This document shows positions 3,800 to 60,134 of a DNA stretch of 64,000 nt, piece after piece. Position 1 is the stretch's first letter, and each line of letters begins with the position of its first letter. The stretch lies in the NCBI GenBank assembly GCA_041652935.1, contig JBAZGH010000001.1, positions 7,393 through 71,392 of the forward strand, given 5' to 3'. The notes beneath the pieces were generated by a model. That model worked only from the letters and a program-made list of their open reading frames with translations, was not told the origin of the DNA and ran no database searches. This stretch comes from Patescibacteria group bacterium (GTDB lineage: Bacteria > Patescibacteriota > Patescibacteriia > Patescibacteriales > XYC2-FULL-47-12). The translations under genes were made by a program, and so were the position numbers.

Positions 3800-3817
3800 T
3801 CCATTTAATTAAGAAGT

Positions 3818-4600: not shown

Positions 4601-4616
4601 AATTTATTTATCGTTT

Positions 4617-6789: not shown

Positions 6790-6805
6790 AATATTAAAAA
6801 TTACT

Positions 6806-10044: not shown

Positions 10045-10052
10045 AATTTTAT

Positions 10053-11048: not shown

Positions 11049-12157
11049 TACCCTATGGACGCCAAAATTTAAATAAAGATGATATTGATTTAGTAGTTAA
11101 AGCATTAAAATCAGATTGGCTTACACAAGGCCCGAAAATTTTAGAATTTGAGAAAGCGCTAGCTAAATATTGCGGAGCTAAATACGCAGCAACTGTTTCT
11201 AGCGGGACAGCCGCACTACACCTAGCTTATTTAACAGCTGATTTTAAAAAGGGAGATGAAGTAATAACTACACCAAATACTTTTGTAGCTACATCAAATA
11301 TGCTGTTAGCCGTTCATGTTAAGCCGGTATTTTGTGATATTAGAGAAGATACTTATAATATTGATGAAAGTAAAATAGAAAAATTAATTACTAGTAAGAC
11401 AAAAGCGATTGTTCCAGTTCATTTTGCTGGACATTCTTGCGAGATGAGAAAAATAAAAAAAATTGCTAAAAAATATAATTTAATAATTATCGAGGACGCC
11501 TGTCATGCGTTAGGTGGAAAATATAAAAATATAAAAATTGGTAGTTGCAAATTTTCTGATATGGCGGTTTTTAGTTTTCATGCTGTAAAACCCATTACCA
11601 CGGGAGAGGGCGGAGCAATCTTAACTAATAACAAGAAATATTATGAAAAATTAATTTCTTTGCGCAGCCATGGAATTCATAAAGATAAAAATGGTAAAAA
11701 TATCATGACAGCGTTAGGATATAATTATCGAATTACCGATTTTCAAGCCGCCCTAGGTATAAATCAACTAAAAAAATTAGATTTTTTTATAAAAAAAAGA
11801 AAAGAAGTTGCGGCATGGTACAAAAAAGAATTAAGTGTATTAAAAGAAATTATTTTGCCGCAAGAAAAAAAAGATTGTTATAGCGGTTGGCATATTTATG
11901 TCATTAGAGTAAAAAATAAAAAAAATAAAGATGGCTTAATGAAATATTTAAGACAAAATGGCATAGGGGTTAATTTTCATTATCCGGCGGTTTACACCCA
12001 CCCCTATTACCAAAAAATAGGCTATCAAAATCTGCGTTTAAAATGCGTGGAAGAATATAACAATACCTGCGTCACCTTGCCTTGCCATACTCTATTGTCA
12101 AGAAAAGATATAGGGTACATAGGGGAATTAGTTAAAAATTATTTTAAAATTAAATAA
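11045..12157 (+). CDS. pseC: DegT-family aminotransferase (PseC-type UDP-4-amino-4,6-dideoxy-sugar aminotransferase)
   Basis: 370 aa. It is a paralogue of the 4617 gene and has the same DegT motifs. Confidence 0.8.
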   Translation: MIPYGRQNLNKDDIDLVVKALKSDWLTQGPKILEFEKALAKYCGAKYAATVSSGTAALHLAYLTADFKKGDEVITTPNTFVATSNMLLAVHVKPVFCDIREDTYNIDESKIEKLITSKTKAIVPVHFAGHSCEMRKIKKIAKKYNLIIIEDACHALGGKYKNIKIGSCKFSDMAVFSFHAVKPITTGEGGAILTNNKKYYEKLISLRSHGIHKDKNGKNIMTALGYNYRITDFQAALGINQLKKLDFFIKKRKEVAAWYKKELSVLKEIILPQEKKDCYSGWHIYVIRVKNKKNKDGLMKYLRQNGIGVNFHYPAVYTHPYYQKIGYQNLRLKCVEEYNNTCVTLPCHTLLSRKDIGYIGELVKNYFKIK

Positions 12158-12164
12158 ATTTATT

Positions 12165-13166
12165 ATGGATTATAATATTAAAAAAGAAATAAATCAATTT
12201 ATTTATAAATACCAAAAAGAAGATGTTAATGAGAAGTTGGGAAAAATTTTAGGGGATGATTTTAAAAAATATCGGAATGATTTTAATAAAACTCAGAATT
12301 ACCATGAAACAAAATTTATACCTGATTTTCCCATAACGATTTCATTAGAATTGGTCAATAGATGTAATTTGGATTGCATAATGTGTCTAGAAAATCAACA
12401 TACTCAGCCAAAATCACAACTAAGTTTAGATGATATAAAAAGGATTTTAGATGAAAGCCAGAAAAATAATATGCCATCTATTGAACTAGGACTAGGGTCG
12501 GAGGTGATGATGTATAAAGATATTCAGGAAGTAGTTATGCTTGTTAAAAAAGCTGGTATTTTAGATGTATTTTTTAGCACTAACGGCATATTATTAAATG
12601 ACGAAATAATTCGAGCAATTATTGATAATAAAATTACCCGAATAAAAATATCATTAGACGCCGCTACTGAAGAAACTTATAAAAAAATAAGGCGTAGAGC
12701 CCCCTCATTAAAAATAACTGAAGACAATATTAAAAAAATAATCGCTTGGAAAAAGAAGAAAAATAGTCCGATTCCTGTAATTCGCCTTAGTTTTATAATA
12801 ATGGATATTAATAAGCATGAAATAAAACAGTTTATAGATAAATGGAAAGACGAAGTTGATTATATAGATTTCCAAAAACTCATTGATTTTTCACATGTTG
12901 GTAAAACGGTGTTACTTGATGAAGTTAAACAAGAAGTAATTAAAGATTCTTTTTGCGCCTATCCTTTCTATAGCTTAAATATTTGGGCTAATGGAGATGT
13001 AAGCCCGTGTTGCACTTTTTATGGAAAGGACTTGATTATGGGGAATATTCATCAGCAAACCCTGAAAGAAATATGGAATAGTAAAAAAATGAAATTAATT
13101 CGTGAACAGCTTTATTCTAAAAAATTCAATCCAATTTGTCAAAAATGTTTATATTTTAGAGATTAA
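12165..13166 (+). CDS. Radical SAM protein with a C-terminal SPASM/twitch cysteine cluster
   Basis: 333 aa. CNLDCIMC is a CX3CX2C motif. The C-terminus carries C...CC...CQKC. Confidence 0.7.
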   Translation: MDYNIKKEINQFIYKYQKEDVNEKLGKILGDDFKKYRNDFNKTQNYHETKFIPDFPITISLELVNRCNLDCIMCLENQHTQPKSQLSLDDIKRILDESQKNNMPSIELGLGSEVMMYKDIQEVVMLVKKAGILDVFFSTNGILLNDEIIRAIIDNKITRIKISLDAATEETYKKIRRRAPSLKITEDNIKKIIAWKKKKNSPIPVIRLSFIIMDINKHEIKQFIDKWKDEVDYIDFQKLIDFSHVGKTVLLDEVKQEVIKDSFCAYPFYSLNIWANGDVSPCCTFYGKDLIMGNIHQQTLKEIWNSKKMKLIREQLYSKKFNPICQKCLYFRD

Positions 13167-13218
13167 AATTAATAGATGGTAGTTTTTAAACTAAAAATTT
13201 AATTGTAAAATAAGCACT

Positions 13219-14160
13219 ATGAATATATTAATAGTTGGTTTTGGCTCAATTGGACAAAGGCATTATAAAAATTTATTAATGCTGGGTTTTAAAGATATCT
13301 ATATTTACGACACCGATAGCGCAAAAATTAATAATAAAAATTTCAAAGTAATAAAGAAATTTGATAAAAAAAGTTTAGAAATATTTGACATAGCCTTTAT
13401 CTGTAACCCCAATAATAAGCACATTAATTCAGCGATTAAATGCGCGGAAGCAGGCTGTCATTTATTTATTGAAAAACCTCTTTCGCATACTTTGCAAGAT
13501 ATTGATAAACTACAAAAAATTTGTCAGAGTAAAAAACTAATAACTATGATTGGTTGTAATATGCGTTTTCATCCGTGTTTAAAATTTATCAAAAATTATT
13601 TAAATAAAAATAAATTGGGTAAAATATACAGCGTCCATCATGAATTCGGCCATTATTTGCCATATTGGCGAGTTGGGCAGGATTATCGTAAAAATTATGC
13701 CGTTAAAAAATCTACCGGTGGCGGAATTATTTTAGACGATATACACGAATTTGATTTATTATTTTGGTTTAACGATTTTAAAAAAATAAAAAATTCAAAA
13801 TTTATTTATAATAAATTAAGTAATCTAGAAATTAAAACAGAGGATTTCTGTTTAGCTGTTTTTCAATTTACTAATAAAATTATTGGCTCTGTACAATGTG
13901 ATTATTTACAACAAAATTATACTAGAAATTGTAAAATTATAGGCGTTAAGGGAAATTTAGAGTGGGACTTCAATGAAAATGTTGTTTGGTTAAAAAACAA
14001 ACAAAATGAGAAAAAATTATTTGCGGTTGATAATTTTAATTTTAATAAAGTTTATTTAGAAGAAATAAAATATTTTTTTAGTTGTATTTCTAAGAAAAAA
14101 GAAACTTTTAATGATACAAAAATTGCTTATGGAGTCTTGAAGTATTGTATAAATAGATAA
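13219..14160 (+). CDS. Gfo/Idh/MocA-family NAD(P)-dependent oxidoreductase
   Basis: 313 aa. The N-terminal ILIVGFGSIGQRH is a Rossmann motif, followed by an EKP motif. Confidence 0.7.
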   Translation: MNILIVGFGSIGQRHYKNLLMLGFKDIYIYDTDSAKINNKNFKVIKKFDKKSLEIFDIAFICNPNNKHINSAIKCAEAGCHLFIEKPLSHTLQDIDKLQKICQSKKLITMIGCNMRFHPCLKFIKNYLNKNKLGKIYSVHHEFGHYLPYWRVGQDYRKNYAVKKSTGGGIILDDIHEFDLLFWFNDFKKIKNSKFIYNKLSNLEIKTEDFCLAVFQFTNKIIGSVQCDYLQQNYTRNCKIIGVKGNLEWDFNENVVWLKNKQNEKKLFAVDNFNFNKVYLEEIKYFFSCISKKKETFNDTKIAYGVLKYCINR

Positions 14161-14163
14161 AAT

Positions 14164-14955
14164 ATGAAAAAAAATAAACAAAAAAACCTATGCATAATCC
14201 AAGCCCGTTATGGATCGACTCGTTTACCGGGCAAAGTTTTAAAGAAGGTTGATGGGCTTACTTTACTTGAATATGAAATAATTAGAGTTAAGCAGGCGAA
14301 AAAAATTGATAAAATTGTCATAGCAACCACTAAAAATAAATCCGACAAGAAAATTGAAGAATTATGCCAAAGAATAAAAATAGATTGTTTTTGCGGTTCA
14401 GAAAATGACGTATTAGATCGTTACTATCAATGTTCCTTGGAATACCCCGAATATAAAAATGTTATTCGGATTACTGGAGATTGTCCATTAATTGATCCGG
14501 TGATAATTGATAAAGTCATTAGTTTTTTTACCAAGAGAAAGCTTGATTATACTAGTAATATTGAGTTAGATACTTTTCCTGACGGTATGGATGTAGAAAT
14601 TTTTAAAAAAGACATTTTAATTGAAACTGCTAAAAGAGCTAAATTACCCTCAGAACGAGAACATGTTACTTATTATATCCGAAAAAATAAAAAATATAAA
14701 AAAGGAAATTTAACCGCGTGTAATAACTGGTCTCATTTTCGCTTAACAGTCGATGAACCAATTGATTTTGAGGTTATAAAATTTTTAATTAAAAATAGTA
14801 AAATTACTGATGGATACTTAGATTATATCTCGCTTTTAACTAAGAATCCAAAAGTAATGCTTAGTAATATTAATATTATTAGAAATGAGTGGAAATTAAA
14901 AGCTTTAAAAGAAGACGGAGAATTTAAAAAACAATATGCCAAAAAAATTCACTAA
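14164..14955 (+). CDS. CMP-sugar cytidylyltransferase (SpsF/PseF-like)
   Basis: 263 aa. CIIQARYGSTRLPGKVL is the SpsF/PseF-type motif. Confidence 0.75.
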   Translation: MKKNKQKNLCIIQARYGSTRLPGKVLKKVDGLTLLEYEIIRVKQAKKIDKIVIATTKNKSDKKIEELCQRIKIDCFCGSENDVLDRYYQCSLEYPEYKNVIRITGDCPLIDPVIIDKVISFFTKRKLDYTSNIELDTFPDGMDVEIFKKDILIETAKRAKLPSEREHVTYYIRKNKKYKKGNLTACNNWSHFRLTVDEPIDFEVIKFLIKNSKITDGYLDYISLLTKNPKVMLSNINIIRNEWKLKALKEDGEFKKQYAKKIH

Positions 14956-16225
14956 AAGTCAACAATTATTTAATAAAACTAGCAAAAGTATACCTCTTGC
15001 TTCGCAAACTTTTTCCAAAAGTTATTTGCAATATGTGAGAGGGCAGGCACCTTTATTTATCACACATGGCAGTGGTTCTCACGTTTGGGATGTTGACGGC
15101 AACAAATATGTGGATATGATAAACGGCTTATTGCCAGTAATTTTAGGATATCAATATAAAGCAGTTGATGATGCGATAAAAAATCAGCTAAATAAAGGAA
15201 TAATTTTTTCTCTGCCGTCCCCATTAGAATGTGAATTAGCTAGAATTTTGATTAAGCATATCCCTTGCGCTGAGATGGTCCGTTTTGGCAAAAACGGCTC
15301 CGATGTTACTTCTGGCGCAGTAAGGTTGGCACGGGCAATAACAGGTCGCAGTCATATTGCTTGTTGCGGTTATCATGGTTGGCATGATTGGTATATAGGG
15401 ACTACTGTTAGAAATTTAGGTGTGCCGAAAGAAACACAAAAATTGACCCATAGTTTTAAATATAATGATGTGGATTCTTTAAAAGAAGTTTTTAGAAAAA
15501 ATAAGAATAGAATTGCAGCTGTAATTATGGAACCGATGAACTATGTTGATTTACGGCCTGGATTTTTACAGCAGGTAAAGAAAATAACGCACGACAAAGG
15601 CGCCTTATTGATTTTTGATGAAATTATAACCGGTTTCAGGTATGATTTGGGGGGAGCGCAAAAATTATTCAGAATAACTCCAGATTTAGCAACTTTTGGG
15701 AAGGCAATGGCAAATGGCATGCCAATTGCCGCATTGGTCGGCAAAAAAAAATATATGAAACACGCTGAAGATATCTTTTACTCGTTTACTATGGGGGGCG
15801 AGGCATTATCTTTGGCAGCGGCAATAGCAACTATTAAAGAACTTGAACAGAAAAAAGTTATAAAGTATATTTGGAAACTTGGGAAATATTTGCAGGATAA
15901 TACCAATAATTTTTTGAAAGAAAATAAATTAGATGAGATTATAAAGGTGCGGGGAAAACCTTGTTGGCAGGTATTTATTATCAAGCCATCAGGAAAATTT
16001 AGCGATCTGGAAATAAAAAGCTACTTGCAGCAGGAAATACTACAGGCAGGATTTTTATGGTATGGACAGCATAATATGAGTTTCAGCCATACAAAAAAAG
16101 ATATGGACAGATTATTAGGAGTTTATAAAAAAGTATTTAAAAATTTAAAGGGGTTAATTGATAGTGGAAGATTAAGGGGGGAATTGAGAGGGCAACCGAT
16201 AACTAATATTTTTAAGGTTAGGTAA
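14936..16225 (+). CDS. Class-III PLP aminotransferase (glutamate-1-semialdehyde aminomutase-like)
   Basis: 429 aa. It has the AT-III fold motifs, including FDEIITGFR and a lysine region. Confidence 0.7.
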   Translation: MPKKFTKSQQLFNKTSKSIPLASQTFSKSYLQYVRGQAPLFITHGSGSHVWDVDGNKYVDMINGLLPVILGYQYKAVDDAIKNQLNKGIIFSLPSPLECELARILIKHIPCAEMVRFGKNGSDVTSGAVRLARAITGRSHIACCGYHGWHDWYIGTTVRNLGVPKETQKLTHSFKYNDVDSLKEVFRKNKNRIAAVIMEPMNYVDLRPGFLQQVKKITHDKGALLIFDEIITGFRYDLGGAQKLFRITPDLATFGKAMANGMPIAALVGKKKYMKHAEDIFYSFTMGGEALSLAAAIATIKELEQKKVIKYIWKLGKYLQDNTNNFLKENKLDEIIKVRGKPCWQVFIIKPSGKFSDLEIKSYLQQEILQAGFLWYGQHNMSFSHTKKDMDRLLGVYKKVFKNLKGLIDSGRLRGELRGQPITNIFKVR

Positions 16226-16226
16226 T

Positions 16227-16838
16227 ATGAATTCAACTAAGGTGTTATTTATTTTAGGTGGTGGATTAGTAAAAAAAGATAATAAATGGAGAACTACCAA
16301 TTTCAAGGAAGGAGATAAATTTGGCGCTTCAGGCGATAGGTTAAGGGTGGTGGCTGGAAGCTGTTTATATAAAAATAATTCAGAATATTTAATAATAACA
16401 TCAGGCGGCAAGGGGCAATATAAAAACGTTCCAAATTCTCTAACTGTAGCCGAGGTAATGAGACGAGAATTATTAGAGCTAGGCGTATTAGAGGAGACAA
16501 TAATAAAGGAAGAGGAATCTAGCAATACTTGGGAGCAATTACAACAGTTAAAAAAGATTATTCAAAAAGAAAATTTTATTAAAATAAAAATTCTTTCCAG
16601 TAGATATCATTTACCACGTGTGCGGGCGATGATTGAAGTTGATGGCAGATTAAATGAAATATTTAAAAAAGAAGTATTAGAATTAGTTTCTGCTGAAGAA
16701 ATTTTAATTAAACACAATGAAAATAAGTGGAAGAATTTTATTGAAAAAGCATATTCAAGCGAGGCTATGAAAAAAAGAATTACTTTAGAAAAACAGGGGA
16801 TTAAACAAATTAAAAACGGTACTTATAGTTTAAAATAA
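16227..16838 (+). CDS. DUF218 (YdcF/SanA/ElyC-like) domain protein
   Basis: 203 aa. The stretch ILGGG...ITSGGKG...SRYHLPR is typical of DUF218. Confidence 0.55.
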   Translation: MNSTKVLFILGGGLVKKDNKWRTTNFKEGDKFGASGDRLRVVAGSCLYKNNSEYLIITSGGKGQYKNVPNSLTVAEVMRRELLELGVLEETIIKEEESSNTWEQLQQLKKIIQKENFIKIKILSSRYHLPRVRAMIEVDGRLNEIFKKEVLELVSAEEILIKHNENKWKNFIEKAYSSEAMKKRITLEKQGIKQIKNGTYSLK

Positions 16839-16840
16839 TT

Positions 16841-17905
16841 ATGAAATATATTGAAATTAAAACTCCTAAAGGAAAAAGAAAAATTGGTCCAGGCCAGCCA
16901 GTATTTATAATCGCTGAAATGTCCGGTAATCACAACCAATCTTTTGCGCGCGCCAAGAAAATAATTGATGCCGCGGTTGACGCTGGAGTTGATGCAATAA
17001 AGCTGCAAACTTATACCGCCGATACAATGACGATAGATTGCGATAAAAAATATTTCCAAGTAAAAGTTAATGACGCGTGGAAAGGGCAAAGTTTATATCA
17101 ATTATATAAAAAAGCTTACACGCCATGGAAGTGGCAACCAAAATTAAAAAAATATGCGGAAAGTAAGGGTTTAGTTTGTTTTTCTACTCCTTTTGATGAA
17201 ACTGCAGTTGATTTTTTGGAAAAGATGAACGTACAACTTTATAAAATTGCCTCATTTGAAGTAGTTGATATTCCATTACTTAAAAAAATTGGAAAAACTA
17301 GAAAGCCAGTAATTATGTCACGTGGCATGGCTTCAATTGAAGAAATTAAGCTGGCGGTTAAGACGCTGAAAGATAATGGCGCGCCACATGTCGCAGTTCT
17401 CCATTGTGTAAGTTCATATCCAGCTAAATCGGAACAAATGAACTTAGCTACTATTCCAGATATTACTAAAAAGTTTAAAGTAATATCCGGTTTATCTGAT
17501 CATACCTTAGGAATCGTTGCATCCTTAATTTCCGTAGCTTTAGGCGCCTGCATCATTGAAAAACATTTTACTTTACGTAGGTCTGACGGAGGTCCAGACG
17601 CTAATTTTTCTTTAGAGCCGAATGAATTAAAAGAATTAGTTAAAAATGTGAGAGAATCAGAAAAAGCTATTGGTAAGCCAAATTATGTAATCAAAGGATC
17701 AGATGAGCAAAAAATGAGAAATTATCGAAGATCTCTCTTTGTTGTTAAGGAAATTAAGAAAGGAAATTTAATAACTTATGAAAATGTCAAATCAATTCGT
17801 CCTAGTTATGGACTGCCACCTAAGTATTTAGACAAAGTTATTAAGAAAAGAGCTAGCAAGGATTTAAGTATTGGCACCCCCTTATCTTTTAATTTAATAA
17901 AATAA
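16841..17905 (+). CDS. Pseudaminic/N-acetylneuraminic acid synthase family (NeuB/PseI-like)
   Basis: 354 aa. IIAEMSGNHNQSFARAKKIIDAAVDAGVDAIKLQTY is a NeuB signature. This is the second copy in the locus. Confidence 0.8.
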   Translation: MKYIEIKTPKGKRKIGPGQPVFIIAEMSGNHNQSFARAKKIIDAAVDAGVDAIKLQTYTADTMTIDCDKKYFQVKVNDAWKGQSLYQLYKKAYTPWKWQPKLKKYAESKGLVCFSTPFDETAVDFLEKMNVQLYKIASFEVVDIPLLKKIGKTRKPVIMSRGMASIEEIKLAVKTLKDNGAPHVAVLHCVSSYPAKSEQMNLATIPDITKKFKVISGLSDHTLGIVASLISVALGACIIEKHFTLRRSDGGPDANFSLEPNELKELVKNVRESEKAIGKPNYVIKGSDEQKMRNYRRSLFVVKEIKKGNLITYENVKSIRPSYGLPPKYLDKVIKKRASKDLSIGTPLSFNLIK

Positions 17906-17911
17906 AATTAA

Positions 17912-18700
17912 ATGTCAGAAAAAAAAGTAAAAAAAATTCATAATTTTTGGAATGAACGCGCCAAAGAGCATAAAACAAGTTATTTAGCTACAGTACCAGA
18001 TAAATTCTTAAAAGAATTAGAGATTAAAAATATTTTGAAATATATTCCTAAGAAAAAAATTAAAGTCGTTGATATTGGTTGTGGTAATGGATTTTCTACT
18101 ATTGCTTTTGCCAAAGAAAGACAAGCTGATTTTTTAGGAGTTGATTATTCAGAAAATATGATTGAGCAGGCTCAAAAAATATTACTTCAACGCAAAAAAA
18201 AAATCAAAGGAAAGGTACGATTTATATCGGGTAATATTTTAAATTTAAATTTTTTATCGCCAGCTACTCATGATATTGTATCAACCGATCGTTGTTTAAT
18301 AAATTTAGTCTCTTTATCAGATCAAAAAAAAGCAATTAAGGAAATATCAAGAGTATTAAAAAAGGGCGGTAAGTATATAATGTGCGAAGATACCAAGGAA
18401 GGATTAAGGAAACTTAATGAATTACGTATTTTGGCTGGTCTTGAAGCTATTCCTAATCATTGGCATAATTTATACTTAAATGAAAAAGAATTGCTACCAT
18501 ATATAGAAAGATATTTTAAAATTATTAAAATTGATAATTTTTCCAGCTTATATTATATTGCTTCCCGTATTTTCAATGCCGTATCAGCAATAGATATAAA
18601 AACCCCCAATTATTTAAGCGTTATTAATAAAACAGCTACTAAACTGCCTTCAATTGGAGATTATTCACCTTTAAAAATATTTTATTTAGAGAAAAAATAA
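17912..18700 (+). CDS. Class I SAM-dependent methyltransferase
   Basis: 262 aa. Motif I is VVDIGCGNGFST. Confidence 0.7.
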   Translation: MSEKKVKKIHNFWNERAKEHKTSYLATVPDKFLKELEIKNILKYIPKKKIKVVDIGCGNGFSTIAFAKERQADFLGVDYSENMIEQAQKILLQRKKKIKGKVRFISGNILNLNFLSPATHDIVSTDRCLINLVSLSDQKKAIKEISRVLKKGGKYIMCEDTKEGLRKLNELRILAGLEAIPNHWHNLYLNEKELLPYIERYFKIIKIDNFSSLYYIASRIFNAVSAIDIKTPNYLSVINKTATKLPSIGDYSPLKIFYLEKK

Positions 18701-18703
18701 TAC

Positions 18704-19375
18704 ATGAATTATGTTATTGCCAGTATAAAATCATGGAATGAAGATAATTATAAAATTTTTTTTGATAAGAGTAAAAATTTTTATTTGATAACTAATAAAA
18801 AAGATTTAACATTTGCTAAATTAAAAAAAATAAATCCTAAATATATTTTTATTCCACATTGGTCTTGGATAATACCGGAAAGTATCTGGAGTAATTTTAA
18901 TTGCGTAGTTTTTCATATGACTGATTTGCCATATGGGCGCGGTGGCACTCCCTTGCAAAATTTAATTTTGCGTGGTCATAAAACCACAAAAATATCAGCT
19001 ATTAAAGTTAACAGAGGGATTGACACGGGAAATATTTATTTGAAAGAAAGTTTAAGCTTAAATGGAAGCGCTGAAGAGATTTATCAACGTGCATCAAAGA
19101 TTATTTTTAATAAAATGATTCCTAAAATTATAAAAAATAATCCAATTCCAAAGAAACAATGCGGAAAAATTGTAAAATTTAATCGCAGAAAACCAGGACA
19201 AAGCGAGATTTCCTCAGGCATGAATTTAAAAAAAGTTTATGATCAAATTAGGATGTTGGATGCGGAAGATTACCCCAGAGCATATTTAAAGACTAAAAAA
19301 TTGAAATTTAATTTTTCTAAAGCTCAATTAAAAAATAAAAAATTAATTGCTAATGTTGAAATATATGAAGAATAA
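18704..19375 (+). CDS. Formyltransferase-family protein (sugar N-formyltransferase-like, Fmt N-domain)
   Basis: 223 aa. FHMTDLPYGRGGTPLQNLIL resembles the H-x-S-L-L-P-x-x-R-G catalytic motif of formyl transferases. Confidence 0.6.
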   Translation: MNYVIASIKSWNEDNYKIFFDKSKNFYLITNKKDLTFAKLKKINPKYIFIPHWSWIIPESIWSNFNCVVFHMTDLPYGRGGTPLQNLILRGHKTTKISAIKVNRGIDTGNIYLKESLSLNGSAEEIYQRASKIIFNKMIPKIIKNNPIPKKQCGKIVKFNRRKPGQSEISSGMNLKKVYDQIRMLDAEDYPRAYLKTKKLKFNFSKAQLKNKKLIANVEIYEE

Positions 19376-20042
19376 TATTTTAGTAATAGCTGCCCATCCT
19401 GATGACGAAATATTAGGCATAGGCGGTACAATTTTAAAGCATATTAAAAACGGTGATCAAGTTAGCATCTTAATCCTAGGGGATGGTGAAAGTTCAAGAA
19501 TGAGTGCGACTGCGGTTGATATTGCAAAAAGAAAAGAACAAGTTAAAGAAGTAGCTAAAAAATTAAAAATTAAAAATATTTTTATTGATGAATTACCTGA
19601 TAATAAATTTGATTCAGTAAGTTTGCTAGAAATAATTAAAAAAATAGAAACTATAATAAATAAGATAAAACCAAATATTATTTATACACATCATGCGCAT
19701 GATTTAAACATTGATCATTGTTTGACTTTTCAAGCAGTGTTAACTGTTTGTCGACCTCAGCCAGATTTTTTTGTGAAAAAAATATTAACCTTTGAAACTT
19801 TATCTTCAACCGAATGGCAAATTAAAAATGGACAAAATAATTTTTGTCCAAACGAATATGTTAATATTGAAAAATTTATTAATAAAAAAATTGAAATTTT
19901 AGAGATATACAAAGATGAATTGAGAGATTGCCCTCATCCTCGTTCGATTGAAGGTGTAAAAGTTTTAGCCAAATATAGAGGAATGGAAGTCGGTTATAAA
20001 TACGCTGAAGCTTTTCAAGTAATTAGAAACTTAAATGATTAA
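19347..20042 (+). CDS. PIG-L/LmbE-family N-acetylglucosaminyl deacetylase
   Basis: 231 aa. AAHPDDEILGIGGT is the LmbE zinc-site motif. Confidence 0.75.
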   Translation: MLMLKYMKNNILVIAAHPDDEILGIGGTILKHIKNGDQVSILILGDGESSRMSATAVDIAKRKEQVKEVAKKLKIKNIFIDELPDNKFDSVSLLEIIKKIETIINKIKPNIIYTHHAHDLNIDHCLTFQAVLTVCRPQPDFFVKKILTFETLSSTEWQIKNGQNNFCPNEYVNIEKFINKKIEILEIYKDELRDCPHPRSIEGVKVLAKYRGMEVGYKYAEAFQVIRNLND

Positions 20043-31348: not shown

Positions 31349-31468
31349 CACAACACGTATTACATAACGCAAACATATGAAAAGAAAAACAATTAAAAAA
31401 GTTATCGGCACCAGCATAATAATCATAATGATTATCGCTATGCTGTTATTTACTTTAATGCCGTTGTT

Positions 31469-31509
31469 TTATTAAAAAATAAAAAGCCGTTTCCAATTCT
31501 GAAAACGGC
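31469..31509 (-). terminator. Rho-independent terminator for the minus-strand small gene
   Basis: On the minus strand the stem GCCGTTT / AAACGGC is followed by TTTTTATTTTTT. Confidence 0.6.
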
Positions 31510-31513
31510 AGTG

Positions 31514-31708
31514 TCATCTAGAACTCCAAAGATAATAGACCGTAATAAAACAGAGAGCGGCCAGGAACCATCTCACCACCTTATAGATTAGAAATCCGAC
31601 TGTATCCCGTATTTCTCGTCTATAAAAATAATCTTCGCCCGCTCCGATAACAATAAATCCAACGACGAATAAGATAAAGCCTAGTATAGTTTTCATTGCG
31701 GGGTCCAT
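31514..31708 (-). CDS. Small two-helix membrane protein
   Basis: 64 aa. A strong SD AGGAGG lies 8 nt upstream, and its own terminator follows. Confidence 0.5.
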   Translation of the reverse strand: MDPAMKTILGFILFVVGFIVIGAGEDYFYRREIRDTVGFLIYKVVRWFLAALCFITVYYLWSSR

Positions 31709-31761
31709 TTCCGCCTCCTTTTTTGAAATAGATGTAAAGATATTAGCATTATTTTAAAGTT

Positions 31762-36580: not shown

Positions 36581-36609
36581 GCTGAAGTGGGGTTAAATTT
36601 TATTTTTTG

Positions 36610-36682
36610 AGCCACCTGTCGGGTTTGAACCGACGACCTACGGTTTACGATACCGCCGCTCTGCCAACTGAGCTAAGGTGGC
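36610..36682 (-). tRNA. tRNA-Thr (anticodon CGU)
   Basis: Folded by hand into a cloverleaf: acceptor GCCACCT/AGGTGGC, anticodon loop AUCGUAA, T-loop TTCAAAC. Confidence 0.8.
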
Positions 36683-36764
36683 CTTTCTTGGAGCAGGTAA
36701 CGGGAACCCGCCCACGTCCCGAATTTTCGGGACTACAGTGGGTAAGTTGAACCCACGATTTCTG

Positions 36765-36835
36765 AGCGGGATACGAGAATCGAACTCGCGTCTCCTGCTT
36801 GGGAAGCAGATGTACTACCATTGTACTAATCCCGC
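36765..36835 (-). tRNA. tRNA-Gly (anticodon CCC)
   Basis: Folded by hand into a cloverleaf: acceptor GCGGGAT/ATCCCGC, anticodon loop UUCCCAA, T-loop TTCGATT. Confidence 0.8.
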
Positions 36836-49610: not shown

Positions 49611-50723
49611 ATGTCTAGAAATTACAAAATTACAATTTTAATAATAACAATAATAGTAAGCTTGGCAGGCGGCGTGATAGGCGGAATTATCTTCCGTTCC
49701 TATTTAATTAACTCTTCTTTCGGGATACCTCTCTGGGGAGATATTAATTTAAGCGATAATTATCAGCAAGGACAAATTGTTATCAGCCAGCCGAAAAAAG
49801 TGATTGTCGAGCAAAATGACAGGATTGCCGAAGTCGCTTCCGGAGCAATAAGGAATAAAGTAAGTTTTTACATAAAAAAACAGCCGGTTTTAAGCAACCA
49901 AGGCGGCGTTTTTAATATTAAAGAGTATTATCTTCCTGGAGATAAGGCGGGGGAGGGGTTAGTGCTTACGAATGACGGATGGGCGGTAACAGCGGTAAAA
50001 GTCAGCAAGCCCTTAAGTTATATCGCGGTTGACAGTGAAAAAGATATTATCGCCATAGAGCGGAGTTATTTTGACGAAGTAAGCGGATATTATTTCGTTA
50101 AATTAAACGCCTCTGATTTATCGGTAGCTCAGTTTACGGAGCCGGAAAGCATGAGGATAGGCCAGTTGGCAGTTGCTTTTTCAGAGGGGGGGATAAAAAC
50201 AGCTTATATTGAAAAAATAAATTATTATCCTGATTACAACTTGGTAAAATCAAGTGAAAATGATTTTAGTTATCTTAAAATAAGCGAAGAAAATTTAGCG
50301 TTGGGCGATATTTGTTTCGGCCTTGACGGCTCCGCGGTCGGCTTATACGCAAAAGAAGAGGCATTAATGCCCATAAATTATTTTAAGAAATTATTGCCCA
50401 ATTTATTAAATAAGGGTGAAATAACACGTTCTTATTTGGGAATAAATTATATTTTATTAGACGAATTAACGGGAGAAGAAAAATTAAGCGGTGCAATAAT
50501 TGCCAAAGATTCTATAGGAGTTTCCATAGAAAAGAAAAGCCCGGCAGAAGCTGCCGGATTGCTTGAGGGAGATATAATTTTGGAGATTGAAGGCAGAAAA
50601 ATCAGCGAAACAAATAATTTAAGCGATATAATACTGGGATATAAAACGGGAGAAGAAATTGAGATAAAAATTGAGCGCAGGGGAGAAGAGCGGCAAATTA
50701 AGGTGGTTTTAGGGGGGCAATAG
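49611..50723 (+). CDS. Membrane-anchored PDZ-domain protein (HtrA-like, with no visible catalytic serine motif)
   Basis: 370 aa. It has an N-terminal transmembrane segment and a C-terminal PDZ domain (GAIIAKDSIGVSIEKKSPAEAAGLLEGDIILEI). No GDSGGP motif is present. Confidence 0.5.
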   Translation: MSRNYKITILIITIIVSLAGGVIGGIIFRSYLINSSFGIPLWGDINLSDNYQQGQIVISQPKKVIVEQNDRIAEVASGAIRNKVSFYIKKQPVLSNQGGVFNIKEYYLPGDKAGEGLVLTNDGWAVTAVKVSKPLSYIAVDSEKDIIAIERSYFDEVSGYYFVKLNASDLSVAQFTEPESMRIGQLAVAFSEGGIKTAYIEKINYYPDYNLVKSSENDFSYLKISEENLALGDICFGLDGSAVGLYAKEEALMPINYFKKLLPNLLNKGEITRSYLGINYILLDELTGEEKLSGAIIAKDSIGVSIEKKSPAEAAGLLEGDIILEIEGRKISETNNLSDIILGYKTGEEIEIKIERRGEERQIKVVLGGQ

Positions 50724-50808
50724 GCGGTATAAGTAATTTTGCATAAACAGCGAGATATTTACTCTCGTTTTTTTATTACTTAAATTATGTTATAATATAC
50801 ACAAGATT

Positions 50809-52002
50809 ATGAAAATAAAAACAATTAAAAATATTAAGAATTTGCGAGGCAAAAGAGTTCTTGTTCGTTGTGATTTTAATGTTGCAATCAAAGACCATAA
50901 AATAATTGACGATTTTAAAATTATCCAAACTTTGCCCACTATTAGATATTTAACAAATAAGGGAGCGAAAGTTATTATTATTACTCATTTAGGCAGGCCT
51001 ACGACAAGCAACAAGCCACAAGCAACAAGTAATCAAAAATATACCATCAAACCGATTATAATTCGGTTGAATAAACTTTTAGGAAAAAAAGTTAAATATT
51101 TAGAAAATTTTTTAGATGACGGTGCTAAAGATGCGGTTAATGATTTAAAAAACGGGCAAATATTAATGTTGGAAAATATTAGGTTTTATCAAGGAGAAAA
51201 GAAAAATGACAAAAAATTCGGCAAAGAATTAGCCGGCTTGGCTGATATTTATGTAAATGACGCGTTGGCGGTTTCACATCGGGCGCACGCTTCAGTCAGC
51301 GCCATCCAAAATTTTTTGCCGTCTTACTCCGGATTATTGCTGGAAAAAGAAATATTGAATTTAAATAAAATTATCCATCCGCAAAAGCCGTTGGCGGTAA
51401 TTATGGGAGGCGCTAAAATAGAAACCAAGGTGCCGGTCATAAAAAAACTCGCGAAAAAAGCCAGTGTAATTTTTATCGGCGGAATGATAAGCTATGATTT
51501 TTTAGCAGCTTTGAAATTAAGTACCGGCAAATACAAAGTTAACGTAAAAAATAAAAAGCTGGCAAGAAAGTTATTGGGCAAAAAAATAATTTTGCCGATA
51601 GATTTTGTGGCCAGTAGTTCTAAAAATGGGCGGGGAAAAATACGGGTTGTGGCTGCCGATGAAATTCCTAAAAATAGCTGGCAACTAGACATCGGGCCGG
51701 AAACAATCCGTTTTTATTCTCAGCATCTTAAACAGGCAAAAACGATAATCTGGAACGGGCCAATGGGCATGTTTGAAAATGATAAATTTAAAAACGGAAC
51801 ATTATCTATTGCCCGGGTAGTTGCTTCCGTGTCGCAAGGCAGGGCTTTTGGCATTGCCGGCGGAGGAGAAACCGTTGTTGCTTTAAAAAAAACAAAAATG
51901 CTTGAGCATGTTGACTGGGTATCAACCGGAGGCGGAGCAATGCTGGCGTATCTGGCTGGAGAGAAGATGCCGGGACTAACTAAGTTAAAAGTTGGAAAGT
52001 AA
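50809..52002 (+). CDS. pgk: Phosphoglycerate kinase
   Basis: 397 aa. It has VLVRCDFNV, HLGRP and GGGA motifs. Confidence 0.85.
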   Translation: MKIKTIKNIKNLRGKRVLVRCDFNVAIKDHKIIDDFKIIQTLPTIRYLTNKGAKVIIITHLGRPTTSNKPQATSNQKYTIKPIIIRLNKLLGKKVKYLENFLDDGAKDAVNDLKNGQILMLENIRFYQGEKKNDKKFGKELAGLADIYVNDALAVSHRAHASVSAIQNFLPSYSGLLLEKEILNLNKIIHPQKPLAVIMGGAKIETKVPVIKKLAKKASVIFIGGMISYDFLAALKLSTGKYKVNVKNKKLARKLLGKKIILPIDFVASSSKNGRGKIRVVAADEIPKNSWQLDIGPETIRFYSQHLKQAKTIIWNGPMGMFENDKFKNGTLSIARVVASVSQGRAFGIAGGGETVVALKKTKMLEHVDWVSTGGGAMLAYLAGEKMPGLTKLKVGK

Positions 52003-52098
52003 AAAATAGAAAGTGCGATGAACGACGAACAAAATTGAGAAATTGGAAGCTAGAAAATTAATAAAAAATATCTAAATTATAAATTTAATTAAAAAAAT

Positions 52099-52863
52099 AT
52101 GCAGAAGCAAAATAATCAAATTTTATTAATTTTAGCCGGCATTTTGACTTTAGTAATTGTAATTTGGATTGGGGTTTTGACGCGCAATAGTCTGAAAGAA
52201 TACCGCTATATAGGGCAGAGCGCCGAGCAGAAGCATTCTATTTATATGAACGGCGAGGGAAAAATTACCGCCGTGCCTGATATCGCTAAAATCCAGCTTG
52301 GCCATTCGGTAGAAAAAAAGAAAGTGGCTGACGCGCAGAAAGAAAATACGGAAAAAATGAACGCGGTTATAAAGAAATTAAAAGAAGAGTTTGATATAGA
52401 GGCTAAAGATATCCAAACCGCCAATTACAATATTTACCCGCAGTATAATTGGACCGACGGGCGGCAAGTGTTGGGCGGATATGAGGTTTCCCAGAATATA
52501 AGCGTAAAAATAAGGGACTTGAATAATATCAGTGATATTTTAGATATGGCCGGGGCAGAAGGATTGAACCAAGTCGGCGGATTAAGTTTTGAGGTTGACG
52601 ATCCGCAGGAACTAAAACAGCAGGCGCGAGAGCTTGCTATACAGCATGCCAAAGAAAAAGCAGAGAGCCTGGCTAAAGTCGCCGGCGTAAAGCTTGGCAA
52701 CATAATCAGTTTTTCTGAATATTCAACCGAACCTCAGTACAGCACTAATAACTTTTTAGCCAAAGAAGCGTACGGCCTGGGCGGAGCTGACAGTTCCCCC
52801 GATGTGGAGGTTGGCAGTACGGAAGTTATCGTAACGGCAACAGTGGAATATGAGATATATTAG
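52099..52863 (+). CDS. SIMPL-domain (DUF541/YggE-like) protein
   Basis: 254 aa. It has an N-terminal transmembrane segment and SIMPL-domain features. Confidence 0.55.
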   Translation: MQKQNNQILLILAGILTLVIVIWIGVLTRNSLKEYRYIGQSAEQKHSIYMNGEGKITAVPDIAKIQLGHSVEKKKVADAQKENTEKMNAVIKKLKEEFDIEAKDIQTANYNIYPQYNWTDGRQVLGGYEVSQNISVKIRDLNNISDILDMAGAEGLNQVGGLSFEVDDPQELKQQARELAIQHAKEKAESLAKVAGVKLGNIISFSEYSTEPQYSTNNFLAKEAYGLGGADSSPDVEVGSTEVIVTATVEYEIY

Positions 52864-52952
52864 TAAAAAGTTGAAAGTTATAAAATTAAAAGCCTGCCTG
52901 TTGGCAGACGGGCTAATATACAAATATAAAATATATAAATAAAGGAGGACAT

Positions 52953-54223
52953 ATGCTTAAAATTAGAAATATAACAGCTCGTGAAATTTTAGATTCTCGG
53001 GGAAATCCGACCGTGGAGGCGCAAGTGGAGCTTGAAAACGGAATTAAAGCCAAAGCATCAGTACCGTCAGGCGCATCCACTGGCGACCACGAAGCGCATG
53101 AATTGCGCGACGGCGATAAAGATCGCTATAGCGGGTTGGGCGTGCTTAAGGCTGTAAAAAATGTAGAAAGTAAAATTGCGCCGGAATTACGGGGAACTGA
53201 TTGTACCAAGCAGGAAAAAATTGATCAAACAATGATTAAGCTGGACGGCACTAAAAATAAAAAGAAATTGGGCGCGAATGCTATTTTGGCAGTATCACTA
53301 GCCTGTGCGCGAGCTGCATCTGTATCTGAAAAGCAGGAATTATATGAATACATTCGTCAATCTTACAACTCACAACTTACAACCTACAATTTACCTGTGC
53401 CGAGTTTTAATATATTTAACGGCGGCAAGCATGCTGATACGAATTTGGATTTTCAGGAATTTATGGTTATTCAATGGCAAAAAATTATAAGAAGGGGCAG
53501 TTTGCCGAACAGATTAAAATGGGAGCTGAAATATTCCATGAATTGGGAAAAGTTTTGCTTGAATCGGGGTTTGATACTGACGTTGGCAGTGAAGGCGGAT
53601 ACGCGCCCGATATTTATTCTTCCGTGCAGGCGATGGAATTTATTATGGCGGCCGGAGTTAGAACCGGCTACCAAATAGGGAAAGATTTCGGGCTGGGGAT
53701 TGACGTCGGTTCTTCCGAACTTTATGACTTGCGGACAAAAAAATATATTTTTAAGCTAGATCAGGCCATTTTCGCCAATTCCACCCTAGTTGATTTATAC
53801 CACGAATGGCTGAAAAAATTTAATGTTATCTCAATTGAGGATGGTCTGGCCCAGGATGACTGGGAAGGATGGGAGGAACTTACCAGAATGCTAAAAAAAG
53901 AAGTAATGATAGTGGGTGATGATTTGTTTGTCACAAATATTGAGCGCTTAAAAAAGGGGATAAAGAAAAAAGTTGCCAATACGATTTTAATAAAGCCCAA
54001 TCAGGTCGGAACTTTGACCGAAACCATAGAATGTGTTAAATTAGCAAAAAAGAATAAATATAAAATATTTGTTTCGCACCGCAGCGGAGAGACAACGGAT
54101 GATTTTATTGCCGACTTGGCGGTAGCGGTTGGGGCTGATTATGTTAAATTCGGGTCGCTAAGCAGGGGAGAGAGAGTTTGCAAATACAATAGATTAATGG
54201 AGATTGAAAATTTAGTTAATTAG
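52953..54223 (+). pseudogene. eno: Enolase, with the reading frame broken by a -1 shift near 53466-53476
   Basis: ORF 52953-53678 matches the enolase N-terminal half up to [11 protein letters not shown] 53474-54223, in another frame, continues with [15 protein letters not shown] through the C-terminal SHRSGETTDDFIADLAVA. Confidence 0.7.
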
Positions 54224-54231
54224 TTACACAA

Positions 54232-55821
54232 ATGAAAAATTTTAATAATATCAAAACTAAACCGCTTATTCTTATTATTCTTGATGGTTGGGGCATCGCT
54301 CCGCCAAACAAAGGCAACGCGGTAACCTTAGGAAAAACTCCGACTATGGATAAGCTTGCGAAAAATTATCCGTACACTGAATTATTCGCGCACGGGAAAA
54401 ATGTCGGCCTGCCCAGCTACCAGGACGGAAACAGCGAGGCCGGGCATATGAATATCGGCGCCGGGAGAATCGTCAACCAGGATGTTATTAAAATAAGCAA
54501 AAGCATTAAAGATAAAACTTTTTTTAAGAATGCTGCTTTCTTGCAAGCGATAAAACATGCTAAAGATAATCGATCCCACCTTCATTTAATGGGTCTGCTT
54601 TCAAACGGAATGAGCGCGCACAGCGATCCATTCCACATTGAAGCTCTTTTAAAATTGGCGCGCGAGCATGGGATAAAAAATACTTATTTGCATCTATTTA
54701 CCGACGGTCGGGACTCTCCCCAGCATGCCGCCCTAAAATTAGTGCAGGATTTAGAAAGAAAGCTTTTGCCCAATGAGTATATCGCTACCGTAATGGGCCG
54801 TTATTATGGCATGGACCGTAAGAAAAATTGGAAAGTTACCCAGCAGGCTTATGATGTGTTAACTTGCAAAAAATGCCGTTGGCACAGCTCAAAAGATACT
54901 GCCAGTGCGATTACGCAAAGCTATAACCGCAATAATACGGATGAATTTTTAGAACCGTATGTTATTTTGCGGAAAAATAAAATATTGCCTCGCATAGAAA
55001 ATAATGACAGTATTATTTTTTTTAATTTGCGTTCTGACCGCGCCCGCCAAATAGCAAAGGCTTTTACTCAAGATGATTTTGAGATTAAAAATAAGGGTTC
55101 ATTTAAACGGAAGGAAAAGTTAAAACATTTATGTTTTGTAGCGATGACGGATTTCGGGCCTGACCTAGAATCTATTTTAACGGCTTTTCCCAGTACTGAC
55201 ATGGAAAATACTCTGCCGATGCAATTAAAAGATTGCAGGCAAATTTATATGGCGGAGACGGAAAAATACGCCCATGTAACTTATTTTTTTAACGGCGGTT
55301 ATGCCGATCCGGTGGCGGGAGAGCAAAGGATCCACGTGCCGTCTCCAGACGTAAAATCATATGACCAAAAACCGGAAATGAGTTCGCGGGAGCTGACTGA
55401 TAATATTTTAAAATTTATAAAAAATAAAAATTTTGATTTTCTTACAGTAAATTATGCCTGTCCCGATATGATAGGCCACACAGGAAATTTAGGGGCCGGA
55501 ATCTTGGCAGTTGAAGCCGTTGATAATTATCTTAGTAAAATTATAGCTGAAGCTGAAAAAAATAGAATTAGAATCATAATTACCGCCGACCACGGGAATA
55601 TTGAAGAAATGATCAAGCTTGATACCGGCGAGGTTAACACTGAACACACAACCAATAAAGTGCCGTTTATTTTCTTTGACAATGAGTTCAAAAAAGCAGA
55701 ATTAAGCCAAAAGGGAATTTTAGGCGATATTGCTCCATTTATATTAATGCTGTTGCAAAAGGAAAAACCGAAGACAATGAATAGGGGGATAATGATAAAC
55801 AAAAAGAAATGGAAGCTTTAA
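54232..55821 (+). CDS. gpmI: 2,3-bisphosphoglycerate-independent phosphoglycerate mutase
   Basis: 529 aa. DGWG, NSEAGH, TDGRDS, TADHGN and EHTTN are all present. Confidence 0.8.
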   Translation: MKNFNNIKTKPLILIILDGWGIAPPNKGNAVTLGKTPTMDKLAKNYPYTELFAHGKNVGLPSYQDGNSEAGHMNIGAGRIVNQDVIKISKSIKDKTFFKNAAFLQAIKHAKDNRSHLHLMGLLSNGMSAHSDPFHIEALLKLAREHGIKNTYLHLFTDGRDSPQHAALKLVQDLERKLLPNEYIATVMGRYYGMDRKKNWKVTQQAYDVLTCKKCRWHSSKDTASAITQSYNRNNTDEFLEPYVILRKNKILPRIENNDSIIFFNLRSDRARQIAKAFTQDDFEIKNKGSFKRKEKLKHLCFVAMTDFGPDLESILTAFPSTDMENTLPMQLKDCRQIYMAETEKYAHVTYFFNGGYADPVAGEQRIHVPSPDVKSYDQKPEMSSRELTDNILKFIKNKNFDFLTVNYACPDMIGHTGNLGAGILAVEAVDNYLSKIIAEAEKNRIRIIITADHGNIEEMIKLDTGEVNTEHTTNKVPFIFFDNEFKKAELSQKGILGDIAPFILMLLQKEKPKTMNRGIMINKKKWKL

Positions 55822-57395
55822 TGACAAATAATAAATTAACGGTTTTATGCATCATTGACGGCTGGGGTGTTGCCGCGCCTTACAACGGCAATGCAGTTAC
55901 TGAAGCTGATTTGCCCAATATAAATAAGATAATTTCCCAATATCCGGTTACAACCCTAGAAGCCGGCGGGGAAGCGGTGGGGCTGGAAGAAGGATTGGCC
56001 GGCAATAGCCGCCAGGGCCATTTTGTTATTGGAACCGGGCAAAGAGCCGACTCTGATTTACTTAGGATAAACAACGCAATCAGGGATAAAACTTTTTTTA
56101 AAAATAAAATTTTGAAAGAAGCGGTTAGACACGCCGAGAAAAACAATTCAAGCATACACATATTAGGATTAGTTTCCGAAGATAAAATTCACTCATCCTT
56201 TAGCCACTTGTTGTCCTTGATGGATTTTTTTAAAAAACGTAAAGAGCAGAAAATTTATTTAGACCTTATTATTTCAGAAGAAGAGTCATCTCTGAATTTA
56301 TTAAGGGAAATCCAGCAAAAGGCGGATAAATATGAGAATATCGAGATAGCAACGATTTCCGGAAGTTTTTACGCAATGGATGGATATGGCAATTGGGACC
56401 GTACTATTAAATTTTATCAGGCGCTGGCGGAGGGGGAGTGTAAAAATAAATTTGACAGCATTTCAAAGGCCGTTGAATTTTATAATAATAATAAAAAAAT
56501 TGCCGCCAGCGGGATTATTCCGACAGTTTTAATAAAAAATAGCCGTCCAGTCGCCACAGTTAAAGAAAAAGACGTTTTAATATTCTTCAATTTTAACCCC
56601 AGAGGAATGGGGCAGATAGTTCAAGCATTTTCTCTGCCCAGCCTAGCTAAGTTCCCGGAGCGCAAAAAATATTTTCCTGATTTATTTATCGCCTGCATGA
56701 CAGAGTATGAAAAGTATCTGCCGGTTAAAGTTATTTTTGATCATCCGGAAATTAACGCCACTTTAAATAAAATTTTAGCGGAAAACAGCAAAAAACAGCT
56801 ATTTATAACCGAAACCGAAAAATATCCTTATTTAAATTATTTTTTTAATGGATTCCAGTATTTTTTTAATGGGGGCGATAATCGGATATTGATTTCGGCC
56901 GAGCCGACAAAGGATGTTTATGGCAGCCAGGAAATATCAGCCGAAAAGATTACCGCCGTAGCGATAAAAGAAATAAAAAAAGGCGCCTATGATTTTATCG
57001 CCCTTAATTATGGAAGCGCCGATATTTTAGCAGATTCCGGCAAACTGGAAGCCGTTATTGCCGGATTGAAAGCAATAGATAAAAATATAGGAAATCTGCG
57101 AAAAGTGGTTTTGTCTGTCGGCGGAACGCTTATCATAACATCAAGCCATGGAAATTGCGAAGAGATGGTAAGCCGCCACAGTGAAGAGATGAATGAAAAA
57201 AATACAAACAACCCAGTTCCTTTTATACTTGCAAACAATAACTTGGAGGGGATTAGCTTGAATAAAGCGGACGCCGCCGGCATTGATTTAAGCGATTTAA
57301 AACCAACAGGAAGCTTACTTGATATTGCTCCGACTATTTTAAAAATTATGGGGATTAAAAAGCCGGATGAAATGGAGGGAAAAAGTTTACTTTAG
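55809..57395 (+). CDS. Divergent iPGM paralogue, likely catalytically impaired
   Basis: 528 aa. DGWG and NSRQGH are kept. The TDGRD position reads SEEES, ADHGN reads SSHGN, and the downstream H reads N (NTNNPVPF). Confidence 0.65.
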   Translation: MEALMTNNKLTVLCIIDGWGVAAPYNGNAVTEADLPNINKIISQYPVTTLEAGGEAVGLEEGLAGNSRQGHFVIGTGQRADSDLLRINNAIRDKTFFKNKILKEAVRHAEKNNSSIHILGLVSEDKIHSSFSHLLSLMDFFKKRKEQKIYLDLIISEEESSLNLLREIQQKADKYENIEIATISGSFYAMDGYGNWDRTIKFYQALAEGECKNKFDSISKAVEFYNNNKKIAASGIIPTVLIKNSRPVATVKEKDVLIFFNFNPRGMGQIVQAFSLPSLAKFPERKKYFPDLFIACMTEYEKYLPVKVIFDHPEINATLNKILAENSKKQLFITETEKYPYLNYFFNGFQYFFNGGDNRILISAEPTKDVYGSQEISAEKITAVAIKEIKKGAYDFIALNYGSADILADSGKLEAVIAGLKAIDKNIGNLRKVVLSVGGTLIITSSHGNCEEMVSRHSEEMNEKNTNNPVPFILANNNLEGISLNKADAAGIDLSDLKPTGSLLDIAPTILKIMGIKKPDEMEGKSLL

Positions 57396-59507: not shown

Positions 59508-60134
59508 TTTTGTTTTTTATACCTTTGTTTTTGCTTATACCTTTGTTTTTGCTTGTTCGCCTATTTTGGGCGGAGTAAAAGATTATTTTTGATCTTTCAC
59601 TATATATATTATATCATAGTTTGCGGTAAAAATCAAGAGGCGTTTTAGTTGTAAGTTATAAGTCTTAAGTTCTAAAGTTCTAAGCTTCAAAATTTTTAGA
59701 GTCCTAACTGGAACTATATAGTTTTAAGTTCTAGAGTTCTAATTTATATAGTTTTAGAGTTGCAAAGCTCTAGGTTATGGGCATGACAAATATTTACTTG
59801 TTGAGATCTTTTTTTATACGGTAAATAAAATTTTTTAATTTAATAATATTATAAATAAATTTTAAATTTTAATTAGTATCTGCCGGCAAAAAAATTTAAA
59901 TATATAATTTTATATTGATAATATTATTTAAAAATTAAAAATTAGATATTATTTAAAAATTAAAAAATTATAAAATTTAAAATTTTAACCATAGAACCAA
60001 TTAGCCCAAGTTATTTTAAGGTAAAAATTACATAAATTTTTTCAACTTGCAACACGGTACGATTAGTGCTATTGTAACATAATATTATAAATCAAACTTT
60101 ACGACTTTTGACTTTTAAACTTTGCAACTAAAGT
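59508..60134. repeat. AT-rich intergenic region of 627 bp packed with short tandem and inverted repeats
   Basis: TACCTTTGTTTTTGCT occurs twice in tandem (59517-59548). There are AAGTTCTAA arrays, a doubled ATTATTTAAAAATTAAAAA, and an ACTTTTGACTTTTAAACTTT arm immediately before the manC ATG. Confidence 0.6.

Follow-up and report, generated by a model that had tools for sequence, protein, structure and literature searches.

Organization of the eno locus

The window (the whole 64-kb stretch of DNA analysed here) contains two overlapping ORFs on the + strand, 52953-53678 (241 aa) and 53474-54223 (249 aa), which are the halves of one enolase. In Pfam searches the 241-aa ORF matched Enolase_N and positions 2-30 of the Enolase_C profile, and the 249-aa ORF matched positions 36-279 of Enolase_C, the two Enolase_C matches thus meeting at profile positions 30 and 36. 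The initial annotation had read the two ORFs as a full-length enolase whose continuity required one extra nucleotide, and both statements hold, as the Enolase_N and Enolase_C domains are split across ORFs whose halves join, and one added nucleotide produces a single 423-codon eno gene. The 3' ORF lies in the -1 frame relative to the 5' ORF (52953 mod 3 = 0; 53474 mod 3 = 2). This -1 frame is open from position 53438, and frame 0 continues to a TAG at 53676-53678, with similarity to enolase being lost in the frame-0 translation after ...FMVI. The features of the locus are the following:

52943..52948, + strand: Shine-Dalgarno sequence AGGAGG, 4 nt upstream of the eno start codon (direct sequence reading)
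52953..53471, + strand: eno codons 1-173 in frame 0, encoding the Enolase_N domain and the first barrel strands and ending in ...LDFQEFMVI (Pfam Enolase_N, E = 8.5e-58)
53472..53473, + strand: 'CA' left of the Pro174 codon CCA, a single C being missing (1-nt gap in alignments with L001, L002 and L166)
53474..54223, + strand: eno codons 175-423 and stop in the -1 frame, encoding the remaining Enolase_C TIM barrel (Pfam Enolase_C, E = 4e-79)
53472..53678, + strand: out-of-frame tail of the first ORF, 68 junk codons followed by TAG (frame-0 translation), made only if the deletion is real
53479..53484, + strand: A6 run, earlier proposed as the shift site and not the site (free of gaps in every alignment)

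The clustering of eno with pgk and two gpmI genes, pointed out in the initial annotation, was borne out by Pfam:

50809-52002, + strand: pgk (Pfam PGK, E = 6e-125; same gene order in L001-L005)
52099-52863: SIMPL-domain gene (DUF541; Pfam)
54232-55821 and 55809-57395, + strand: two tandem paralogues of cofactor-independent phosphoglycerate mutase of the gpmI type (Pfam iPGM_N and Metalloenzyme in both)

The order PDZ-pgk-(SIMPL)-eno-iPGM-iPGM-DUF212-BacA-CAP-... is kept in the relatives L001-L005, all of which carry an intact eno at the same position and neighbouring genes whose lengths match those of the window, the agreement with the syntenic relative L002 included. The tandem iPGM genes overlap by 13 nt, and the second one is more divergent (iPGM_N scores of 150 versus 220 bits); as the pair is also found in L001 and L002, it would represent an old duplication. 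The SIMPL gene between pgk and eno is present in the window and in L001 (23-1252) and absent in L002 (9965-10001), and the L001 spacer additionally contains a 79-aa PDDEXK_3 fragment. Judging from these gene contents, the pgk-eno spacer appears to be a variable insertion spot.

Among the approximately 66 genes of the window, eno is the only broken one, with Pfam domain coverage of the remaining ORFs being complete and of a single family. Four further pairs of overlapping or adjacent ORFs (18704/19347, 39468/40355, 14164/14936 and 46442/46947) were considered as possible split genes, which would have pointed to an error-prone assembly, and rejected, their members belonging to different families. 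The window contains over 150 homopolymers reaching 7 nt or more, among them many A7-A10 and T7-T8, and none of them breaks another gene. A second eno was not found by tblastn within the 64-kb window. When the enolases of related loci were inspected, the frame was broken at this site in none of the 164 relatives. Only one other frame-broken enolase was present among the 165 related loci (L142, 204-1324), with the break elsewhere in the gene, around residues 63-81; it lies on a metagenome contig of just 1,326 bp and is probably another assembly error.

The missing base lies in the codon for proline 174

DNA alignments with L001, L002 and the same-strain contig described below (L166) placed a gap of 1 nt in the codon for Pro174. 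The window reads ATT-CA-ATG at 53469-53476, whereas the relatives read ATT-CCN-ATG (window GTT ATT C-A ATG GCA AAA AAT TAT; relatives ATT CCG ATG GCA or ATG CCA ATG GCA), and in the same alignments the register is kept without any gap from ATG GCA AAA onward. The strings ATTCCAATG and ATTCAATG, spanning positions 53,469-53,476, distinguish the two alleles. Full-length homologues come closest in Falkowbacteria-like Patescibacteria, whose enolases of 421-422 aa (86-88% identity) have FQEFMIIPMAEYYKKGQF and FQEFMIMPMAKKYKQGQL at the junction, and the IPMA found in the nearest relatives is the IPMA of the repaired window gene. Codons 1-173 of the window likewise encode a peptide 86-88% identical to intact Falkowbacteria-like enolases.

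Because the gap falls in the proline codon, and a proline occupies this position in 162 of the 164 related enolases retrieved from collections of genomes and metagenomes, the alignments indicate that the lesion is a change from CC to C at 53472/53473 and not a shortened A-run. The initial annotation had located the missing base in the A-rich run, with coordinates 53466-53480 for CAATGGCAAAAAATT, and this has to be revised: the string actually lies at 53472-53486, and the A6 run (53479-53484) is aligned without gaps. A 7-A run, earlier proposed as the restoring change, would yield ...VIQWQKNY... and lose the proline, and it is a C that restores the gene; in L002, an in-frame A7 even takes the place of the A6 of the window. 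Comparison with orthologous eno genes, suggested at the same time as a check, found all the relatives intact at this site and exposed the Pro174 codon as the lesion.

An independent assembly of the same organism carries an intact eno gene

Proteins encoded in the window are present in the NCBI MAG 'Patescibacteria group bacterium' on an 85,364-bp contig that is also found in JGI/IMG. The NCBI accessions run from MFA5317905.1 (PDZ) through 906.1 (PGK), 907.1 (SIMPL) and 908.1 (iPGM-1) to 909.1 (iPGM-2), and no eno protein record exists in NCBI between MFA5317907.1 and MFA5317908.1. JGI/IMG calls two 'enolase' fragments at the locus, of 241 and 196 aa, and the frameshifted 241-aa product has been recorded only from this single contig.

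The independent Logan assembly of run SRR18595300, which may or may not be the read set behind the window's contig, shares several proteins with the window. Five Logan contigs could be aligned to the window:

49995-55302: L166
55284-59961: L167
15669-26731: L168
44291-46486: L169
3979-11086: L170

Over the 30,354 bp compared there were 0 mismatches and exactly one gap, of 1 nt, which corresponds to an extra C in L166 (ATTCCAATGG in L166, ATTCAATGG in the window). As a result, the enolase encoded at 2959-4230 of L166 is an unbroken protein of 423 aa, and it matches exactly the repair that had been predicted beforehand from the homologues. The pattern expected of an assembly error, i.e. an otherwise identical independent assembly free of the lesion, is what L166-L170 provide. 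It is not credible that an error in the Logan assembly restored by chance both the reading frame and the conserved proline, and therefore the population that was sequenced does contain an intact allele. The initial annotation had named reads restoring a single ORF as the observation that would settle the matter against a real frameshift; such a restoration is there in substance, at the assembly level (SRR18595300), although the restoring base is a C in CC and not the seventh A that had been anticipated.

The intact protein had not surfaced by other routes. Look-ups of the exact products of the two eno fragments and of iPGM-1 gave no hit, and only those of neighbouring proteins led to the source. 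Scans of genome_contigs and metagenome_contigs with exact DNA patterns spanning the site, with either 0 or 1 base added, gave no match, and protein-guided locus searches in the same two collections returned only relatives with at most 88% identity. The homology search topped out at this value because the intact 423-aa Logan enolase is clustered under the 196-aa JGI fragment as representative. Fragment representatives can thus conceal intact proteins, a blind spot of homology search that affects fragmented genes. In the literature, nothing was found on Falkowbacteria enolase or on run SRR18595300.

The eno sequence shows strong constraint and no decay

The 423-aa enolase of L166 contains both Enolase_N and Enolase_C and has the length typical of the family (~420-430 aa). 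It can be aligned over its full length with more than 50 solved enolases, end to end (residues 4-420), the best match being 4a3r (E = 7e-130). In comparison with bacterial enolases (PF03952 Enolase_N and PF00113 Enolase_C; B. subtilis 4a3r, E. coli 1e9i), the SGASTG loop, GGKHA, FQEFM, DVGSSE, IEDG, GDDL, KPNQ.GT and SHRSGET are all visible in the intact allele, and the contig of the window differs by the loss of one C from the codon for Pro174. Relative to the B. subtilis and E. coli enzymes, the loop that follows FQEFMVIP has ~4-5 additional residues, and it varies within the clade.

With the C restored, the window enolase retains the catalytic motifs and 192 of the 193 columns that are invariant in 16 relatives; the single deviation is a conservative K5R change, as few as in any intact relative. 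Pairwise dN/dS values against the nearest relatives ranged from 0.02 to 0.09, similar to those of intact control pairs. The part 3' of the shift, which a real and old shift would have left untranslated, was the most constrained, with a pN of 0.038 against the nearest relative and a dN/dS (omega) of 0.023. Since dS is saturated (at least 1.6), these ratios cannot date the lesion finely, and the absence of stop codons was used as a bound instead: the 249 downstream codons include 116 positions one step away from a stop and contain 0 stop codons, which limits neutral drift since the lesion to less than ~0.08 substitutions per site. No further stop codon or indel was found in eno. The lesion, whatever its nature, is evolutionarily instantaneous.

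Origin of the lesion

We infer, with a probability of roughly 0.7, that the C was lost locally when the deposited contig was assembled or its consensus called, the deleted version being an artefact rather than a real minor allele, and that the organism has a normal enolase. An artefact is favoured because the independent assembly of the same organism has the C and an intact gene. According to this explanation, the real gene of the Falkowbacteria-like Patescibacteria MAG would carry CCA at Pro174 where the deposited contig reads CA, and the lost C would split the gene call into the 241-aa and 249-aa ORFs. Among the possibilities initially listed (pseudogene, sequencing error or recoding), it is sequencing or assembly error that the evidence sustains, at the expense of recoding and of an authentic evolved loss of eno. 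Assembly artefacts account for many of the frameshift 'pseudogenes' of bacterial assemblies (Cooley & Wright 2024, PMC11017572), and the present case resembles them in that a single-base indel splits a conserved gene and another assembly lacks the indel. It differs from them in that there is only one event in 64 kb, the ~66 other genes being intact. The gene itself belongs to the enolase family as an ordinary member and sits in a conserved glycolytic cluster; its frameshift is of a known kind, the 'spurious frameshift pseudogene', with nothing novel about it.

The deletion affects a run of 2 nt and not a long homopolymer, and the long runs of the window break no other gene; the case therefore does not fit the homopolymer errors classically seen in long-read or 454-type data. 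Were the data of the Illumina type, several reads would normally have to back a consensus deletion, and there would be some scope for a real minor variant. The strongest alternative, although in our opinion an unlikely one, is a genuine and very young eno-null allele segregating beside the intact one, with each of the two assemblers having picked a different one. The cells with the null allele would produce the first 173 residues of enolase followed by 68 junk residues and would lack the active enzyme. Heterogeneity among the reads would explain why the assemblies differ at one base alone in 30.3 kb, a site outside long homopolymers offers no obvious cause for a systematic platform error, and the absence of decay fits a very recent mutation. 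Against this, the Logan contig carries the intact allele through without a break, and the 0 SNPs between the assemblies in 30 kb give no sign of a separate sub-lineage. Strong counter-selection would also be expected, given the low dN/dS (0.02-0.09) and an eno that is intact in all the syntenic relatives, and the 241-aa product is known from one contig only. That the single-C allele is a recent enolase-null variant coexisting with the wild type in a clonal episymbiotic CPR population is, in this form, slightly more doubtful still; if true, some cells would manage without lower glycolysis, drawing on their host or neighbours.

The remaining explanations (programmed recoding, an evolved loss of eno and a functional split enolase) are very improbable even when taken jointly. 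Under recoding, the full-length enolase would be restored either by a -1 ribosomal frameshift or by slippage of transcription in the A6 run (53479-53484), with one A being added. The locus shares with programmed -1 frameshifting and realignment systems (dnaX A_AAA_AAG, IS transposases; Antonov et al. 2013, PMC3711429) the 0/-1 overlapping ORFs and a nearby A-run. Perfect single-codon re-pairing in the -1 frame is possible only at TTT 53451, where a shift would destroy FQEFM, and at AAA 53481 (53481-53483), where it would give a protein of normal length (...VIQWQKNYKK...) devoid of the near-universal proline found in 162 of the 164 relatives. The published criteria for programmed frameshifting demand that homologues share a slippery sequence of 7 nt or more where the shift occurs, and transcriptional realignment is linked to A or T runs longer than ~7-8 nt (PMC3711429). 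None of this applies to the window eno. No X XXY YYZ heptamer was present in frame 0 between 53438 and 53530; the only frame-0 heptamer, G GGT TTG at 53567, lies 31 codons past the loss of enolase similarity, too far downstream to yield an enolase. As for a stimulatory structure, the 127 nt from 53474 to 53600 folded no better than shuffled sequences (MFE of -23.2 kcal/mol versus a shuffle mean of -23.6, z = 0.13). The A-run, of only 6 nt, is shorter than the A>7 tracts tied to realignment (PMC3711429) and lies outside the gap, so that the shift point defined by homology is not within it. Finally, 0 of 164 relatives are broken at this site and an in-frame allele exists in the same strain, all of which makes recoding extremely improbable.

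CPR bacteria have reduced genomes with a patchy central metabolism. This would be compatible with a fixed, authentic loss of enolase (an evolved pseudogene), and the ATG located exactly at the start of the second half with a functional two-piece enzyme made from both ORFs, yet either outcome is extremely improbable in view of an intact allele within this clonal population, the lack of a second lesion, of relaxed constraint and of fixation, the position of the only SD-like AGGA 15 nt upstream of ATG 53474 (4 nt for the true start), a TIM barrel that would be cut after its second strand, and the absence of any relative with a gene split at this site.

With the missing C read as an assembly error, the biological weight of the frameshift is small: the organism would have a normal enolase in a conserved pgk-eno-gpmI-gpmI cluster, and therefore nothing here shows that glycolysis has been lost or that eno is recoded. 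The deposited MAG contig calls for a correction, namely an additional C after 53472, and scoring this MAG as lacking eno in metabolic reconstructions would be wrong.

Other features of the window

A large sugar-modification cluster with many of its parts in duplicate extends from 493 to 20042. The duplicated parts are:

493-1506 and 16841-17905: two NeuB-type synthases
5737-6789 and 10053-11048: two PseB/Polysacc_synt_2 dehydratases
4617-5747 and 11045-12157: two DegT aminotransferases
3098-3799 and 14164-14955: two CMP-sugar cytidylyltransferases

The cluster also includes a PglD-like acetyltransferase, radical SAM/SPASM, methyltransferases and an ABC exporter, and looks like two nonulosonic-acid pathways (of the pseudaminic or legionaminic type) in a CPR genome. 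A short ORF of 223 aa at 18704-19375 is formyltransferase-like, its match to Formyl_trans_N beginning only at profile position 72; because it sits inside the sugar cluster, it may encode a sugar N-formyltransferase and not a Met-tRNA formyltransferase.

The intergenic regions 59508-60134 (627 nt) and 31349-31761 (413 nt) contained no ORF of at least 100 aa, no tRNA and no Rfam match at the gathering threshold. The only RNA genes found in the window were those for tRNA-Thr(CGT) and tRNA-Gly(CCC), at 36609-36835 on the - strand, opposite to almost all the protein genes.
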